Shown piece by piece: positions 1 to 61,137 of a DNA stretch of 64,000 bases (the stretch's first letter is position 1; every line of letters starts with the position of its first letter). The stretch is taken from positions 32,001 to 96,000 of the IMG/VR virus record IMGVR_UViG_3300046007_003718, one strand, 5' to 3'. The notes under the pieces are model-generated. The model did not search any database, was not told where the DNA came from, and saw nothing but the letters and a program-made list of their open reading frames with translations. Both the position numbers and the translations under genes were made by a program. Source of the stretch: a virus.

Positions 1-3000
1 TGTTGCATACTCACCAAAAGTCATCTTTTCAACAGGAGAAGTCATATGAAAAAGTTCTCCAGTATCTGGATTATAAAGTCCACGATAAGACTTGCTTAAA
101 TCACTTCCTATCCACCCATTATCTATTAAAGTTTGTTGATGAATATCTTCCCAGTCGCCTGCAATATGCATTTTTCCATCAGGATCAATTACGGCTGCAT
201 GAAATCCCTCTATCCAATGGCTTTTCTTTTTCCATTTAGATTCTTTATACCCAACAGGCTGAATAATAAGATCATATGGATGTTTGCCATGATCAAAGTG
301 GAATGACCAGCGCTTCTTTTCTTCGTAAAGTTTTAGATCTTCTATTGCGTGGCCATCTTGCTCTTTAGCCTCGGGGTCAATCTTTTTATTGTCATGAGGG
401 TTTTTCTTATTTATATATCCATTTTTAAGTTGCTTAAGCCACTTAAGAGTTTGCTTCTTTACTTCCTCCCAACTTCCGGTTGTGAGGATATCGTGGCCCA
501 ACTCTCCATCAAGGACGGCTTCCCACGCATCTTCTTTAGATGTTTTCCATTTAGACATTCTCATCTGGGCCACCTCTGCTGGGGAATGACGATTATATCT
601 ATTTACATCGTATCCAACATATGGATTTCTTTCAGGCTCTCCCGAAAACATTTTTACCTCTGATACTGGAATGTCAGCATCTTCAGCAGCCTTAAGCCAT
701 TCTTTTTCGGTTTTATATGGAGATATAAAATGTTCTGGGCTATTAAACCATTCAAAACCCAGTGGCCATTGCTTTTCAGTATCATCTGTGCTGTAATCCC
801 AACTATTTTGAAGTTTGTTCCACTCTTCGGGAGTTGTCATATGTAACAACTCGCCAGTATCCTTGTTGTAAAGACCACGATGATATTTACGCAGTCCTAG
901 ATCGCTAAATAAACTTCCGTGAAAATGATTCCAATCTTTAGCGACTCTCATTTCGCCATTTGGAGTAATAATTGCTGCATAATAATCCTCTAACCAATGG
1001 CCTTTTTTCTTCCATTTAGAAACTTTTGGCATAAACTCTTCTGAATCTAAGAGATTAAAATCTTCTTTTTTGTTTTCACCGTGCCAAAGTTTCTTAAGAG
1101 GCTCATCTCCATATTCATCTGCATCTTTTTCGTACATTAATTTAAAATCTCTAATAGGAATATTTGACTGATTGGCAGCATCTCTCCAATAAGTTTCATG
1201 CTCTAAAGGATTTATGGCCTCATCTTTACTTAGATATTCATAACCGGGGGACATATTCTCATGCTCTTCTGAAGAGGTCATGTGGATAAGTTCTCCAGTT
1301 TTATGATTATAAAGTCCACGATATTGAGGATAACCGCCAATATCCCAATGCGTTGCGTGCCAAGTATCGTCTTCGTCAATTACATTTCCATTACCATCAA
1401 CAATAACCATTCCCGGAGGAGCAACTTCCATTTTCCCATGTTGATTGATTATTGCAGCGCTAAATCCTTCAATCCAATGCGCTTCTTTTTTGTTTCCAGT
1501 ACGTTTTGGTGCAGGAGAAGCAAAAGTAATTTGATATTCATGCTTATAATTCTCTTCTGGTTTATTCCAAAGAAATTTAAAATCTTCTGGAGATTCTTCC
1601 GGTATGTCTCTTTTGTGCATTACATGAACAGATCCAATAGGAATATGTTTTTTATCAACTACATTTAGTTTATCGCCACCCTTTAATAAACCACTAAGAT
1701 TGGGATTCTTGCCATTTTCATCAACGGGTCCATAATCGCCCATCTCTCCAGCCGGTTCAATAATGTCAACAGGCTTTTTTGCAGCATCCATCCAAACTTT
1801 TTGATGCTCTTCGGGGGTAGCATCTAAAGCCTCTCTATTTGGCAAGATATCGTCGTATCTATTTTTTACATATTCTGTTGGTGAACTTAAATGAATTACT
1901 TCTTTTAATTCTGGATTATATAACCCGCGATAATCAGGGAAAGTACCATTTGCTGCGTGAATATTCCAATGATTCATACCTTCGTGATTTGCAAGAATCA
2001 TTCTATATCCACCATTTTCTTCATCAGGAATTAAAGTTGTTGAGTACCATCCGGGGAAATAAGTTCCTCGTTTTTTAATGCTTCCAGTCTTTGTATCGTA
2101 TCCGCCTTGTGCTATTTCCCAAGGAGTTAGAGGACGTTTTCTTTCGCGCATTCTCATCTCTCTAGATACTTCTTCAGGCATTTCCAAATCTGCAACATTT
2201 AGATCTTCCAAGTGCCCTGTCTGATTGTTTAATACGCGAATAGAATCTAATTCGATGTTATTTTGTTCAGCAAGTTGTCTCCAGAATGCTTCCATTCTGT
2301 CGCGCTCATCTTGATCTAGATGTTTGAAGTTATATTCTGCTTCATTCCAAAAATCGGGGTGAGACATATGAATAAAATCTTTTGTGACTGGATTATAGAG
2401 GCCTCTTGCTGTATGATAATTATAATAGTCCGTGCGACTATCCTTATCTGCGACAGCCTTTCTCATGGCTTTTGTGCCAAGATCATTTATATAATCTGCT
2501 GTCACGCCTCCGTGGGTCAGTTTATCATTGAAACCCACATCCATGTGCCAAACGTCGGTGTCTGGGTCTCTTAACGCAACTGTTGCATGATATCCATCTA
2601 CCCAGTATGAGAGTTTGGACATATTATCTAATGCAATTAGAATCGCAGCCTTTTGAGAAAAACCTGCTTTGATTAGAGATTGTTCCATTTCTTGTTGCAT
2701 ATCTAGTTTACTTTTCTTTTCAGGAAGGTCTTTGGGGCTTTGCCCCTCAACATATTCACAAGCCTGAGCGCGAGTCATTCCTTTAGGTGGCTTAATTGAT
2801 CCATTGCAGATTGCTTGCATATATCTGAACTGAGCCTTACTGCGGGCTGGGGCTTCTTTAATCATCCATTTGGACTTAATAGAAGGAAGAGGTAAACGTC
2901 GTTTAGAACCATATTCTTGATAATACTTATCAATTGCATCTTTAATATCCATATCTTTTGCAGCACGACCGACCCAATTTTCTTTATAGACAGGATCTGA

Positions 3001-5127
3001 TTCTTCGATTATTGGATATCTTCTCATAAAGTCTGCAAAAAGATTTGCATCTATTTCCATCGGATGCTTAACATATTCCTCTTCAAACTTTTTAGCAACC
3101 TCTTCGTCTGTTAGGCTTGGATCTATTTTAGTTGGATCAAAATAAGCATCTCTCAACTCTTTTGTAAAGCGTTCTTCTTGGTGTTGATAAGCATGTTGCA
3201 ATTCATGCCAAAGTGCTTCGTTTGCAGATTCTGGAGAGATAAGAGGATTAATATAAATAAATCCACTTCTGTTCTTTCCTTGGGGAGATTCGTGAGTCCC
3301 CAATGCCGCTCTGTTCCAGTGGGTAAGGTCTGGTTTTTCTCTTCCTTTGAGTTGTGCCTGTTCTAAGGATAGAGGAAAAACATTATATTTACTTTCTAAT
3401 GGCCACTCTGGGTGATTGTATAGTCTTTCCAGATTCTCTTTATTCAATTGCCATCTGTGACCCCGAGGGTCTTTATTGTATTTGTATCTTTCTTCAATCT
3501 CTTCAGCAGAAGGCGCTGGGGCTTTTTCATATCCCTCACCGAATTCTTCTGCTTTTTCTGCTGGAGGAACGGATATTTTCCACTTAGACAGACTTACAAA
3601 ATCTTGTTTTTGTGCTTTTTCTTTCAATTTTGGATTTACTATATCTGCACCGATTGGCGTTGGAAGATTATCTTTCATCCATCTAAGAACGGCGAGAGAT
3701 AATCTTGGATATCTTTGATTAAAATTATCTACTGTTTCTTGTGCATATGGATAATAAGTCTTTGCATGACCTTGTTCATTTAATTTTTGTAAATATATTC
3801 TACTTCCGGGGTAATAACTCTGTCCATCCATATAAGTAGCAGGCACATTATAATGAATACTTTCTACATAAGTTGGATTTTTATATTCCGAATATGCACC
3901 TTCAAGATCGTTAGGATCGCTAAAATCTTCGCCATATTCCAATGGATCAGTTTCCACATAATGATTAAATAATTCTGGGTGATTTAAATTATATTCCATT
4001 CCATAAACAATTTGAAGTTTTTCTGGATCCCAAAAAGATATGTTGTGATTGATTTGAGAACGTTGAGACAAGTAAAACCTATCTTTAGACAACATTCCGC
4101 TAGGGACTTCAGTTAATGAACGAGTAAGAGCATCAGAATCTATTTCTGCAATAGGAATAACTCCATATCTTGCAAAATTAGGAACTAATTCATGAACTAT
4201 TGCATAACCCGAAGGTATCTCATACTCGTCAATATTTCTTACATCTATTGGAGTTGCTTTTTCTGACGAAACGACTACCCAAGACTGTTTTTCCATTTCG
4301 TCAAGTAGTTTAGAATAAAAGCCCCATCCTCCGATTGGATCTTTATATGTATCAGGTTGAGGATTATTCTTGCGACGAACTATTCTCCATTTCTTACCAT
4401 TAATAATTTTTATCTCATCTTCATGCTCATCTGAAGTATCTTCATTTTGAATAGATTCAAAAGTTGTTTCTGCTGCGGGAGGACCGTCTGTGTGTTGGCG
4501 GTACATTCTATTAGCATCTTGTGCCATTTTCCACTTAGATTCTTTTTGTGGTCCATAAAGCGCACGTTGCATTAATTGTGCCCGAGTTGGGACTGGAGTA
4601 TCTTCATTTGCAGCAGAAAGCCCTTCATGTAAACCGGGAATAAAGCCAACTCTTTGATCAGTAAAACCACCACGATCAATTGCATACCCGGTTTGACCTA
4701 AGCATTCTGTTGCCAGTGCTTTTTGTGCATGAGGACTTGATAGAGCAAAATGTGTGGAACATGCATCATTTTCACCATGCCAGCCAAAGTCACCTTCAGT
4801 TGCTGCATGACCAAAAACATCATGAACGATTCTGAAGTTTATATTATCTTGTGGGGTCCAGATGGGGTGATCTGCATTTGCAGTAGAAACAATAAAATTT
4901 CTATTGTTTCTTATATCACGGATCATATCCTCAGAAGTATCATAAGGTTCTGGATCCTCTGTTTCTGTTACATTTAAGTGTTGTTTAATGTAATCAGCGT
5001 GTTCCTTAGATTCTTCTGCCAGTTGTTTCCAAGCATATTCTGCTTTTGGATCGTACTTAGGCAAAGCCGCATATCCAGCAGCCACATCTCCAATGTTGTG
5101 GCGAGAATGATCCATATTCCATTGCAT
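1..5127 (-). CDS. Giant modular polyprotein (>=1709 aa, 3' end outside window), probably virion/head-associated; HDxFGH domain, HExxH zincin domain, 5 RGLYN repeats
   Basis: Absent from the ORF track, consistent with no stop inside the window. ATG at 5127 (MQWNMDHSRHNIGDVAAGY). Frame read by hand over much of its length with no stop. Motifs FRIVHDVFGHA, HELQHAYQ...HPMEIDA, PARSKAQFRYM and repeated SKWK linkers. Confidence 0.85.
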   Translation of the reverse strand, partial: MQWNMDHSRHNIGDVAAGYAALPKYDPKAEYAWKQLAEESKEHADYIKQHLNVTETEDPEPYDTSEDMIRDIRNNRNFIVSTANADHPIWTPQDNINFRIVHDVFGHAATEGDFGWHGENDACSTHFALSSPHAQKALATECLGQTGYAIDRGGFTDQRVGFIPGLHEGLSAANEDTPVPTRAQLMQRALYGPQKESKWKMAQDANRMYRQHTDGPPAAETTFESIQNEDTSDEHEDEIKIINGKKWRIVRRKNNPQPDTYKDPIGGWGFYSKLLDEMEKQSWVVVSSEKATPIDVRNIDEYEIPSGYAIVHELVPNFARYGVIPIAEIDSDALTRSLTEVPSGMLSKDRFYLSQRSQINHNISFWDPEKLQIVYGMEYNLNHPELFNHYVETDPLEYGEDFSDPNDLEGAYSEYKNPTYVESIHYNVPATYMDGQSYYPGSRIYLQKLNEQGHAKTYYPYAQETVDNFNQRYPRLSLAVLRWMKDNLPTPIGADIVNPKLKEKAQKQDFVSLSKWKISVPPAEKAEEFGEGYEKAPAPSAEEIEERYKYNKDPRGHRWQLNKENLERLYNHPEWPLESKYNVFPLSLEQAQLKGREKPDLTHWNRAALGTHESPQGKNRSGFIYINPLISPESANEALWHELQHAYQHQEERFTKELRDAYFDPTKIDPSLTDEEVAKKFEEEYVKHPMEIDANLFADFMRRYPIIEESDPVYKENWVGRAAKDMDIKDAIDKYYQEYGSKRRLPLPSIKSKWMIKEAPARSKAQFRYMQAICNGSIKPPKGMTRAQACEYVEGQSPKDLPEKKSKLDMQQEMEQSLIKAGFSQKAAILIALDNMSKLSYWVDGYHATVALRDPDTDVWHMDVGFNDKLTHGGVTADYINDLGTKAMRKAVADKDSRTDYYNYHTARGLYNPVTKDFIHMSHPDFWNEAEYNFKHLDQDERDRMEAFWRQLAEQNNIELDSIRVLNNQTGHLEDLNVADLEMPEEVSREMRMRERKRPLTPWEIAQGGYDTKTGSIKKRGTYFPGWYSTTLIPDEENGGYRMILANHEGMNHWNIHAANGTFPDYRGLYNPELKEVIHLSSPTEYVKNRYDDILPNREALDATPEEHQKVWMDAAKKPVDIIEPAGEMGDYGPVDENGKNPNLSGLLKGGDKLNVVDKKHIPIGSVHVMHKRDIPEESPEDFKFLWNKPEENYKHEYQITFASPAPKRTGNKKEAHWIEGFSAAIINQHGKMEVAPPGMVIVDGNGNVIDEDDTWHATHWDIGGYPQYRGLYNHKTGELIHMTSSEEHENMSPGYEYLSKDEAINPLEHETYWRDAANQSNIPIRDFKLMYEKDADEYGDEPLKKLWHGENKKEDFNLLDSEEFMPKVSKWKKKGHWLEDYYAAIITPNGEMRVAKDWNHFHGSLFSDLGLRKYHRGLYNKDTGELLHMTTPEEWNKLQNSWDYSTDDTEKQWPLGFEWFNSPEHFISPYKTEKEWLKAAEDADIPVSEVKMFSGEPERNPYVGYDVNRYNRHSPAEVAQMRMSKWKTSKEDAWEAVLDGELGHDILTTGSWEEVKKQTLKWLKQLKNGYINKKNPHDNKKIDPEAKEQDGHAIEDLKLYEEKKRWSFHFDHGKHPYDLIIQPVGYKESKWKKKSHWIEGFHAAVIDPDGKMHIAGDWEDIHQQTLIDNGWIGSDLSKSYRGLYNPDTGELFHMTSPVEKMTFGEYAT

Positions 5128-58062: not shown

Positions 58063-61000
58063 TTATAAAAACAAATCTTGATCTTCAGTGGGAAGTTGAT
58101 ATGAATCTTCTTCTATTGTAGCAGTTTGTTCAAAATTTGCAAGTTCTGGATAATGTGTGCCTTCTAGATTAAGACGATCTAAATTTCTAGCAATTCCCTG
58201 TTCATCAATTAACTCTCTCTGCTGTGAGGTTGACAGGTTTGCAGTTTTATTTATAGGCTTCCATTTGGCAGCACGGTTCCAATATTCAATTTCTTCTTTT
58301 GTTTTACCCTTTTGCCAAGGCTCGTCTTCTAGCCAATGTCCTCTTGTTGGATCATCTTCTTCTCTCATAAGTCTCATCGCCCTTTGTTGTATTTCCCAAG
58401 GAACTTCCAGTTTTTGATCTTCTTTATCTTCTTCGCCATAGACGTTATATCCAGATAAGGCTAATCCAGCCCCTTCCATAGCATTTGACCAAAATTCTTT
58501 TAGATTGGTTCTTTCATCTTCACTCAATTCATCTTTATAGGCTGGGTGACTTAAGTGAATTAAATGTTTAGTTTGAGGATTATAAAGACCTCTGACGGTA
58601 TGATCGTTATAAAGATTTCCAATCGTCATTTGATCATTGGCTTTTGCTAATGATTTGTTTTTTAATGCTTGATCATAAAGAACGTCTAAATGACCATTTC
58701 TATCGTTAGGAGAAACTTCTGTATGATATTCTCCTGTCTCTGGATTGTGAACAGAAATGATTGCATGGTATCCATCAATGTAATAAGCCTCTTTATCTAA
58801 AGAAGAGGTCTTTATTGGTTCAAACTTATATTTAGAAGTTCTCATCTTATCTTCATCTAAAGTAACCTCTACTCCAGATCCGCTTAAGTGAATATCTAAT
58901 TTTTTAGGACCATTATTAATTACCCTGACAAAATCAGGAACGGGATACTCGGGGGAAGTCATCTTGTAGATCTTCCCCCTTTCTAATAAATTTCCCTTAG
59001 TATCCTTCCATGCGGCTACTTTTGCAGTTGTTGCAGAGGGAAGGCCTGCTGCTGCTGGATTTGCCCTCTGACCGGCTGGAGAGATTGGAGACTGGCTGTT
59101 GGGATGGGGTGCTTGTTGAGCATTTAACCATTTTTTAGCCATTTCTGGGGGTACATTAGGATACATTTGAGAAAGTTGTGCCATCTCTTGTTGCTGCTTT
59201 TCTAATTCTGTTAATTGTAAAGGATTTGGTGGCAATCCAACATTTTGTGGACTAGCATTCCATCCAGCATTAGACATACCAGCGCCGGTATTTGGCATAG
59301 CAGTATAGTCAGCACTTTTTTCACTAGATGAACTTTTTTGTTTGCTTCTTTCTTCAGCAATCCAGTCTTTGACTTTCTTTCGTTCTTTATCTATTAAAGA
59401 AATTCTTTCAATTGGAGCGCCTTCGCTTTGCATTTCTAAAATAAGATTAGTTAAACGCTCTTCTTCGGCCATAAGTCTTGACAACATAGAGGAGTCTTGA
59501 GCCCATTTTTCTTGTTGAGGAGTGATTAAATTAGAATCTGCTTGTTGGTTAATTTTTTCATCTTCATTTTGGCCAACATGCTCACCCTTGGCGGGGAATC
59601 CTGCTTCTTCTTGAACAATACCTCTTGCCCAATCAAGGAGTTCTTTAAATTCCCACTCACCTTCTTCTTCTAAGAAATCTTTTCCTAAAGAAGAAGGGTC
59701 TGTTGCAAATCCCATCTCTTTTCTATCAGAAACTACTTCTGGATGGTTTTCAGCAATCCAATTTCCAACTTCAATAAAATTTCTTTCTGAAAAGTTTGAA
59801 GTTTTCCACTCAACGCCCAAGTTTGCAACTGCTGGATCAACTAAAGGGTCGCTATTTGCCACCTTTTGAGCCTGATCAATTGCCCAAATTGTTCTTTCTA
59901 ATCCAAACGCGGGAGAAAGTTCATTTACAATCTGCTCTTCGTGTGCGCCAGATTCAAGGTATTTAGCAACCTTTGCTAAAACTGGACGGTCTTCTTCTGC
60001 ATAATCTTCAAATAAAGATTCTTCAGTTTGAGCAAAAATTGGTCTGATTTTCAATTCATCGTGGGAAGCCATCGCTCCGGGAATGAGGCCCTGTCCTTGT
60101 GGCATCTTCTGAGGAGTTCCAGCGCCCTCAATTGGCACCGGGCTTGGAGTTTCATCTTGATTAGCAATAGAAGCACTACCTTCTGCTGGATCTGTTACGT
60201 CTGGAAGTCCACTATTACCTTCTTCTGGAGCGATTCCAGCGGGGAGTGGGCTTGTCATAACGGCATTGTGGTAATCTGCTGGGATTGCGGTGAGAATAGT
60301 CTGAAGTTCAGCAATGGTGCTGGCTTCGTGAGCATAACTAAAATAAACCCACCATTCTGCTCTATTCTCTGCTTCTCCAGAATCTGCCCAAGCCTTAAGA
60401 GCAGCGATAACTTGCGCTCTAAGAGTTTCAATGTCTTCATTTCTCTTTTTAGGTCCGGGGGATGTTGCAGATTGGAACATCAAGTTGTCTTCAACATGCT
60501 GATATGGCATTTCATAACGATTGTTTGCATAAGTAGGCTGAGGGCCTTTTAGATCCCAATCTGTAGTTTGTACCGGCGCTGCGCCTCCAACGGCTCCTCC
60601 ACCGCCCCCACCACCGGGAATTAAACTAGCAATACCAAGGCCCTTAAGAGCCGAGCCTAAACCACCTTTTGCTGCTTGCAAACCTTTTTGAGCAAAAGGA
60701 AGAAGTCTACCGGCCATAGGAAGGACTCTTGATGCAAGCATTCCTCCCGCAGCAAGAAGTGGAGCAATGGCGGTTTTATTCTCTCCCATCCTAAAACTGC
60801 TAATTCCATTTGTTTTGGGAGAGCCTAGAAGAGAAATAATTTCATGAGTTCCGGGAAGATCTTCTTCTCCTAATTCAGAATCTGAACAAGTGTGCAAAAA
60901 ATCCATAAAGCATGAGTTAAAGTGGTCTAATTCAGAACAATCTTCGCCATTTTCTTCTTTGGCTCTTTTTTCGTGATTGTAATCTTGTAAATATTGTTGA

Positions 61001-61137
61001 ATAAACGCCTCTGGGCGCTCTAGAGGATCCGGATATTCGTATGCCTCTGGGTCATAACCACTATCTGCGGGACTAACCATCTCTCCAATGGCTAGTTTTC
61101 TATCCAAACTGGACATTCTAAATGCGAAATCAGACAC
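58063..61137 (-). CDS. 1024-aa modular virion-type protein with one RGLYN domain
   Basis: KxA/KxS-delimited segments; YYIDGYHA...RGLYNP...HLSHP at ~58540-58785; AGGAG RBS. Confidence 0.75.
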   Translation of the reverse strand: MSDFAFRMSSLDRKLAIGEMVSPADSGYDPEAYEYPDPLERPEAFIQQYLQDYNHEKRAKEENGEDCSELDHFNSCFMDFLHTCSDSELGEEDLPGTHEIISLLGSPKTNGISSFRMGENKTAIAPLLAAGGMLASRVLPMAGRLLPFAQKGLQAAKGGLGSALKGLGIASLIPGGGGGGGAVGGAAPVQTTDWDLKGPQPTYANNRYEMPYQHVEDNLMFQSATSPGPKKRNEDIETLRAQVIAALKAWADSGEAENRAEWWVYFSYAHEASTIAELQTILTAIPADYHNAVMTSPLPAGIAPEEGNSGLPDVTDPAEGSASIANQDETPSPVPIEGAGTPQKMPQGQGLIPGAMASHDELKIRPIFAQTEESLFEDYAEEDRPVLAKVAKYLESGAHEEQIVNELSPAFGLERTIWAIDQAQKVANSDPLVDPAVANLGVEWKTSNFSERNFIEVGNWIAENHPEVVSDRKEMGFATDPSSLGKDFLEEEGEWEFKELLDWARGIVQEEAGFPAKGEHVGQNEDEKINQQADSNLITPQQEKWAQDSSMLSRLMAEEERLTNLILEMQSEGAPIERISLIDKERKKVKDWIAEERSKQKSSSSEKSADYTAMPNTGAGMSNAGWNASPQNVGLPPNPLQLTELEKQQQEMAQLSQMYPNVPPEMAKKWLNAQQAPHPNSQSPISPAGQRANPAAAGLPSATTAKVAAWKDTKGNLLERGKIYKMTSPEYPVPDFVRVINNGPKKLDIHLSGSGVEVTLDEDKMRTSKYKFEPIKTSSLDKEAYYIDGYHAIISVHNPETGEYHTEVSPNDRNGHLDVLYDQALKNKSLAKANDQMTIGNLYNDHTVRGLYNPQTKHLIHLSHPAYKDELSEDERTNLKEFWSNAMEGAGLALSGYNVYGEEDKEDQKLEVPWEIQQRAMRLMREEDDPTRGHWLEDEPWQKGKTKEEIEYWNRAAKWKPINKTANLSTSQQRELIDEQGIARNLDRLNLEGTHYPELANFEQTATIEEDSYQLPTEDQDLFL

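Follow-up and report, generated by a model that had tools for sequence, protein, structure and literature searches.

The RGLYN module, a repeated domain in giant multi-domain proteins of an uncultured myophage

A 64,000-nucleotide stretch of viral DNA (the window), corresponding to bases 32001-96000 of the 110,395-bp linear IMG/VR virus record IMGVR_UViG_3300046007_003718 (estimated 70% complete), encodes repeated copies of a protein module marked by the pentapeptide RGLYN. These copies almost certainly represent a real, new and autonomous domain family. The genome holds seven such modules, six in P0001, a multi-domain protein of 2165 amino acids (aa), and one in a protein of 1024 aa. The module is likely to be a cargo unit of head-associated polyvalent proteins, giant polypeptides that combine many unrelated domains. 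We tentatively favor, as just under an even chance, the fuller reading that it is an autonomous cargo domain of these proteins which acts as a non-catalytic binding scaffold with variable loops.

A compact domain with no convincing match in curated families or solved folds

A preliminary description of the window had placed five copies near its start and a sixth in the 1024-aa protein, and its coordinates are right for the core of every copy. The minus-strand open reading frame (ORF) at the window start runs on for another 456 codons in an uninterrupted frame to give P0001, and one more copy lies just beyond the window within this ORF, which extends the tally to seven. The pentapeptides are located at aa 908, 1067, 1270, 1417, 1682 and 1828 of P0001 and at aa 849 of the 1024-aa protein. 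In the six-frame translation of the window RGLYN occurs six times against 0.06 expected, always in frame and within two ORFs. The copies were aligned and a hidden Markov model (HMM) was built from them; leave-one-out E-values range from 2e-9 to 5e-26, and the copies are thus homologous.

Modeling of the module used a 26-row alignment comprising the seven copies of this genome, those of related contigs and diverse metagenomic proteins, with the columns inspected individually. Proteins P0003-P0020 were entered in the structure alignment as whole sequences and their correct alignment in the query columns was confirmed. The AlphaFold2 model of module 5, with a mean predicted local distance difference test score (pLDDT) of 93.1 and a predicted template modeling score of 0.87, is a single compact alpha/beta domain. 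It consists of strands at residues 9-13 and 19-21, a helix at 29-35, the RGLYN hairpin at 47-52/57-62, a helix at 64-70, a long W..AA helix at 83-97 and a strand at 103-106, giving a strand-strand-helix-strand-strand-helix-helix-strand topology of approximately 110-130 aa. Among 49 modules, the set to which all conservation values refer, Arg48 is invariant and high conservation is found for Gly49, Leu50, Tyr51 and Trp90 (98%), His29 (94%), and Asn52 and His60 (92%), with Thr55, Trp4, Gly7, Ala10, Pro64 and Ala94 above 80%. The modules otherwise diverge to ~20-25% identity, which agrees with the earlier impression of highly diverged copies that keep RGLYN and His residues. Conserved blocks cover residues 1-13, 47-62 and 98-102, and both entropy and insertions (up to 18 residues) cluster in three loops at 14-18, 36-46 and 71-82. 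The modules are acidic, with a mean isoelectric point of 5.2 and a mean net charge of -9; His makes up 4.9% of residues, and none of the acidic, Lys, Ser or Cys positions that would be expected of a hydrolase or transferase is conserved.

Orthologous module pairs from other contigs have ratios of nonsynonymous to synonymous substitution rates (dN/dS) of 0.04-0.18, indicating purifying selection on every paralogue. Together with the confident model (pLDDT 93), the uninterrupted 2165-aa frame and the excess of RGLYN occurrences, these values refute the reading of the repeats as a chance motif, as low complexity or as an artefact of a non-coding or wrong-frame ORF, which keeps practically no probability.

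In the libraries that were searched (PDB and BFVD for folds) the domain matched no curated family and gave no convincing fold match, and no curated library places a family that the preliminary description had likewise failed to recognize. In Pfam, including the LPD and PolyVal models, no family was found for any of the seven modules at E<=10, with single-member noise only (E 0.02-0.29); NCBIfam, PADLOC and PHROGs gave no match to any copy, and the RGLYN profile found nothing below E 0.07 among PDB sequences. Foldseek searches with the module model returned nothing significant (best E 0.33 in PDB and 0.15 in BFVD), and further fold searches (VIA-wide, pdb_via) returned nothing convincing; for comparison, a lower-confidence model of another P0001 domain did return a coherent list of fold matches. 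The gelsolin/villin repeat (G1-G6) ranks among the nearest known systems, as a tentative fold comparison. The ESM Atlas contained no usable neighbor for module 5 (best 0.76) or for the small RGLYN protein P0017, and the motif retrieved unrelated text only from the searchable literature. Several specific assignments were tried and dropped. The G[FY]H...hairpin motifs had suggested GIY-YIG and His-Me/HNH folds, but the YIG position is unconserved, no such structures occur among the structural matches and there is no conserved metal-ligand pattern. A PD-(D/E)xK nuclease reading, raised by several weak structural matches, was dropped because the catalytic D...(D/E)xK residues are missing, and a DNA-binding reading because of the acidic net charge.

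The family is rare. When 1.84 billion representative proteins were searched with the profile, 20 RGLYN proteins emerged, all metagenomic, and a word-indexed search of 5.8 billion clusters identified 17, each of them from an ENA, Logan or JGI metagenome; the domain was found in none of 50,697 GenBank phage genomes. IMG/VR and JGI metagenomes were also scanned with back-translated patterns, which yielded one related 129.6-kb IMG/VR contig, a few fragments and chance matches. A near-length homologue search gave no short relatives, and a related-locus search of IMG/VR with P0003 as query gave nothing. Nearly all carriers are 600-3220 aa long with 1-7 modules each. Two proteins, P0017 (140 aa) and P0016 (185 aa), are essentially single modules, which argues that the unit is autonomous. 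P0017 and module 5 (111 aa) also represent small, soluble-looking targets for work on structure and partners.

Carrier proteins, linkers and exchange of modules

From N to C terminus, P0001 comprises a phrog_3170 domain, an unassigned region, a zincin-like HExxH region, the six RGLYN modules and a C-terminal domain, and the RGLYN series is interrupted by a conserved 110-aa domain (Table 1). The C-terminal domain has the ADP-ribosyltransferase (ART) fold and is DarT/Tpt1-like. Among the GenBank phage genomes P0001 is matched by its N-terminal domain only, which in the cluster C phages of Mycobacterium is part of a 511-aa protein. The zincin-like region gave a sub-threshold match to Pfam Peptidase_M78 (E 0.012; 15.8 bits, where the cut-off is 22), a weak match to the metallo-protease family phrog_87 (E 0.075) and no match to Pfam MPTase-PolyVal, and is a candidate in-cis processing metallopeptidase. 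The 110-aa domain matched no family; the relative L012 has a version with 90% identity, and further copies occur in P0002, P0004, P0009 and P0011. Nothing among PDB sequences matched the N-terminal, the zincin-like or the C-terminal region, and PHROGs matches on whole proteins were limited to aa 10-167 and the HExxH region. The second carrier, the 1024-aa protein, matched no PHROG or Pfam family, is encoded where a cluster of tail-fibre genes ends downstream, and P0012 is its orthologue, with 53% identity.

Table 1. Coordinates of the RGLYN modules, their carriers and associated features (window positions unless stated otherwise)
Feature	Position	Strand	Remarks
P0001, part in window (aa 1-1709)	1..5127	-	whole gene: genome 30630-37127 = L003:633-7127(-)
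P0001 N-terminal domain, aa 10-167	4627..5100	-	phrog_3170 (PHROGs), no assigned function
P0001 zincin-like region, aa 515-755	2863..3585	-	HExxH (WHELQH) and downstream HPMEID; sub-threshold profile matches
RGLYN module 1, aa 839-970	2218..2613	-	long-loop type; closest paralogue of the copy in the 1024-aa protein
RGLYN module 2, aa 1021-1133	1729..2067	-	most diverged
RGLYN module 3, aa 1215-1335	1123..1485	-	insertion between strands 1-2 and helix 1
RGLYN module 4, aa 1375-1498	634..1005	-	SKWKKK before; long helix 2-helix 3 linker
Conserved non-RGLYN domain, aa 1525-1634	226..555	-	SKWKTSKEDAWEAVLDGELGHD...HPYDLIIQPVGYKESKWK; SKWK on either side
RGLYN module 5, aa 1635-1745	1..225	-	last 36 codons beyond window; modeled copy, L001:1393-1725:-
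Six K-x-S-K-W-K linkers in window	4528-4539, 3577-3588, 2863-2874, 1009-1020, 544-555, 229-240	-	
Two K-x-S-K-W-K linkers beyond window	genome 31336-31347, 31792-31803		
RGLYN module 7, aa 783-904 of 1024-aa protein	58426..58791	-	
1024-aa protein	58063..61137	-	Gly-rich hydrophobic segment near aa 125-190; long Pro/Gln-rich stretches
Pyrimidine-dimer DNA glycosylase, 144 aa	5180-5614	-	Pyr_excise, E 2e-21; directly upstream of P0001
823-aa fusion protein	genome 24300-26771, L034:4300-6771	-	head maturation protease (phrog_18299), zinc ribbon and repeat-rich, scaffold-like-looking C-terminal part
467-aa protein	genome 104800-106203, L035:9800-11203	-	no family match; module-free homologue of RGLYN-bearing P0005 and P0007
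3220-aa polyvalent ORF of relative	L012:1038-10697	-	IMGVR_UViG_3300013132_000025; seven RGLYN modules

Polyvalent proteins are known from phages and conjugative elements, together with their large polyvalent-protein-associated domains (LPDs); those of the phage type contain from 2 to at least 15 unrelated domains per polypeptide, and they have been proposed to be packaged into the capsid, to enter with the DNA and to be processed by a metallopeptidase embedded in them (Iyer, Burroughs, Anand, de Souza, Aravind 2017, PMC5512222). P0001 resembles these proteins in that one giant polypeptide located among late and virion genes unites several unrelated domains (phrog_3170, the zincin-like region, six RGLYN modules, the 110-aa domain and the ART fold), the last of them being an enzyme domain of the host-directed type. 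ART-fold units and, as a candidate, the zincin-like HExxH unit are common to both groups, as are the ParB, 2H and RelA/SpoT-type HD domains of the relatives, whose giant proteins hold ParB_N, PcfJ, 2H (2_5_RNA_ligase2) and HD_4 domains. Uncharacterized filler domains and extensive mosaicism between related elements are likewise shared. The proteins described here differ in that RGLYN matches no Pfam LPD, MPTase-PolyVal or ART-PolyVal model, in the amplification of one uncharacterized domain to 6-7 diverged copies per protein and in a fixed K-x-S-K-W-K linker that punctuates the domains.

This linker, in the form K-x-S-K-W-K-[KIV]-[SAV], stands at every domain border of P0001, with 8 occurrences against 0.65 expected (~12-fold), and the 3220-aa ORF of the related contig has 11 against 0.95 expected; SKW is at background level in the remaining ORFs of the genome. 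Some relatives terminate in SKWK plus 2-4 residues, and the lineage of P0007 and P0016 has (E)QLxLFxA...K in place of the linker. The N-terminus of the module itself, K-x-[SA]-[HY]-W, carries the linker signature too. The pattern fits a lineage-specific address or cut signal, for which the prohead protease and the in-cis zincin would be candidate proteases.

Homologues of other proteins of this phage extend the range of carriers. The 823-aa protease protein lacks an RGLYN module and is 58% identical to P0013 over its first 264 residues; beyond the protease part, P0013 continues with SKW(K/Q)KV-punctuated modules, two RGLYN units among them. The C-terminal half of the 823-aa protein is homologous to P0014 and P0018, in which an RGLYN module separates the zinc ribbon from the C-terminal part. 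P0013, P0014 and P0018 are split or extended versions of the 823-aa fusion with RGLYN modules. The 467-aa protein is similarly related to RGLYN-bearing proteins, and by eye its central part has a helix-hairpin-helix glycosylase-like look. Taken with these homologues, the module has been inserted into at least five backgrounds (the giant multi-domain protein, the 1024-aa protein, the prohead-protease fusion, the putative scaffold homologue and the homologue of the 467-aa protein), two of them head-assembly proteins.

The shuffling between proteins proposed in the preliminary description is supported by this range of backgrounds and by a module content, in copy number and order, that varies strongly among related phages. 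In the module tree, orthologous sets extend across phages: copy 1 clusters with copies in P0004, L012, P0008 and L028, the copy of the 1024-aa protein is the sister of this set, and P0003, P0005 and P0006 contain separate expansions. Synteny is preserved in the related contig, which has flanks of ~80% nucleotide identity, a capsid gene ~7-8 kb from its polyvalent gene and a single RGLYN module in a 1017-aa protein ~57 kb from that gene. Homology between the 3220-aa ORF and P0001 is found in islands only, and modules have been gained and lost between relatives at the polyvalent-gene locus, which is a hot spot of such change. The orthologous sets, low dN/dS and islands of homology indicate for the modules that they are old, individually maintained and reshuffled.

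Possible roles of the module

Association of the RGLYN proteins with the phage head is probable, as suggested by the fusion of modules to homologues of the prohead protease and of the putative scaffold in relatives. T4 IPI-III and Alt and the P1 Dar proteins enter the prohead, undergo trimming by a protease and are then injected to act before phage gene expression. In T4 IPI-III and Alt this involves a capsid-targeting sequence and processing by gp21. The logic proposed for the RGLYN proteins, with prohead loading, trimming and injection with the DNA, is similar, and there is no sequence relation between the two groups. In contrast to the T4 and P1 cargo, the RGLYN proteins are polyproteins with internal repeated linkers that in relatives are fused to the protease or scaffold.

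In the explanation that we favor, the RGLYN unit would have been amplified, diversified and moved as a cargo unit in a small, uncultured clade of Bixzunavirus-like myophages. The giant polyvalent proteins would most likely be loaded into the prohead, possibly cut at their K-x-S-K-W-K linkers and delivered with the phage DNA, and the module would most likely act stoichiometrically rather than catalytically. Its rigid core would be formed by the N-terminal K-x-S-H-W-x-x-G, the RGLYNPxT hairpin, His29, His60 and Trp90. Since this conserved core displays three indel-rich loops, the paralogues could differ in the host or phage partner to which each of them binds. A binding scaffold is suggested by conserved positions that resemble a folding core and tight turn, by the lack of a conserved acidic, Lys, Ser or Cys residue, by the confinement of variation and indels to the loops and by arrays of long-diverged, individually conserved paralogues, which suit stoichiometric recognition of different partners.

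The preliminary description had proposed an effector or enzyme domain within virion polyproteins. The virion polyprotein setting is plausible from the tail-fibre, prohead-protease and major-capsid neighbors and from the protease fusions in relatives; packaging and cleavage are inferred. The effector or enzyme label is not established, as there is no assignable catalytic signature or ligand and the conservation fits a structural core with variable loops no less well than an active site. A related and unlikely alternative is that the module is a small enzyme or a sponge-like ligand binder using His29, Arg48, Tyr51, Asn52 and His60, with injected paralogues acting at entry on a ligand such as a nucleotide or phosphate-containing host signal. 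The near-invariance of these residues despite the low overall identity, the high His content, the purifying selection on every paralogue and the company of NAD and nucleic-acid enzymes (the ART fold here; 2H, HD and ParB in relatives) would all agree with such a site. However, the conserved residues typical of hydrolases or transferases are lacking, RGLYNPxTG resembles a strand and tight turn, the two conserved Trp resemble core residues, 6-7 copies of a single enzyme per chain would be unusual, and the searches made revealed no enzyme and no known sponge with a similar fold or profile.

A purely structural or packaging function is rather unlikely. The modules would then have no effector role and would serve as spacers or dock to the scaffold, the protease or the inner capsid wall, either loading the attached enzymes or building an extended internal or ejection structure. 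The position of the 1024-aa carrier beside tail-fibre genes is compatible with this and weighs against the binding scaffold. For docking, however, a single unit would do, yet the paralogues have long been kept distinct as conserved orthologous sets; stand-alone single-module genes occur, copy number varies from 1 to 7 among relatives, and the protease-scaffold protein of this phage has no module, which indicates that the module is not required for head assembly as such. The binding-scaffold reading meets another difficulty, in that the near-invariant polar residues His29, Arg48, Tyr51, Asn52, Thr55 and His60 would equally suit a catalytic or small-ligand site. The phage is uncultured, and capsid packaging, SKWK cleavage and injection are inferred for every member of the family. 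The Pfam MPTase-PolyVal and ART-PolyVal models do not match P0001, so that its assignment as a polyvalent protein draws on architecture and fold-level evidence. Decidedly improbable, at present, is the strongest version, in which RGLYN would be a genuinely new fold and a portable, ejection-compatible binding scaffold with three hypervariable loops that is loaded into the capsid through K-x-S-K-W-type address or cut signals and injected. If true, the injected paralogue arrays would give the phage a ready-made set of inhibitors directed at host defence or at targets of takeover.

Polyvalent and capsid-cargo proteins are regarded as the first products of a phage that the host encounters, and most of their filler domains are uncharacterized. 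The strong conservation of RGLYN within each paralogue and its amplification beyond any other unit in these proteins suggest that it is probably important for the phage clade. The linker and the protease and scaffold fusions of the relatives would provide a concrete system for the addressing, cutting and delivery of cargo.

The phage and the neighborhood of P0001

The genome has a G+C content of 42.8% and the phage is a myovirus, with genes for a tail sheath and baseplate wedge. It is an uncultured, Bixzunavirus-like relative of the large mycobacteriophages, and its major head protein shares 54-55% identity with the corresponding proteins of Mycobacterium cluster C phages (Bixzunavirus) and Gordonia phage Skog. 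Transcription of P0001 heads to a tail-fibre/collar gene (phrog_9116), the 823-aa protease-domain protein, a 182-aa protein and the major head protein (phrog_2522), and tail sheath and baseplate genes also lie downstream on the same strand. The order of giant protease, ~180-aa protein and capsid protein is identical in phage Grungle. Cluster C phages (e.g. Grungle and Myrna) and Skog share homologues of the N-terminal phrog_3170 domain with P0001; they differ from this phage in the absence of the RGLYN domain, which was not detected in any GenBank phage record. In Skog, unlike in the fused P0001, the phrog_3170 domain is encoded by a stand-alone 202-aa gene with no appended modules. The order of a glycosylase gene followed by a phrog_3170 gene is common to Skog and this phage.
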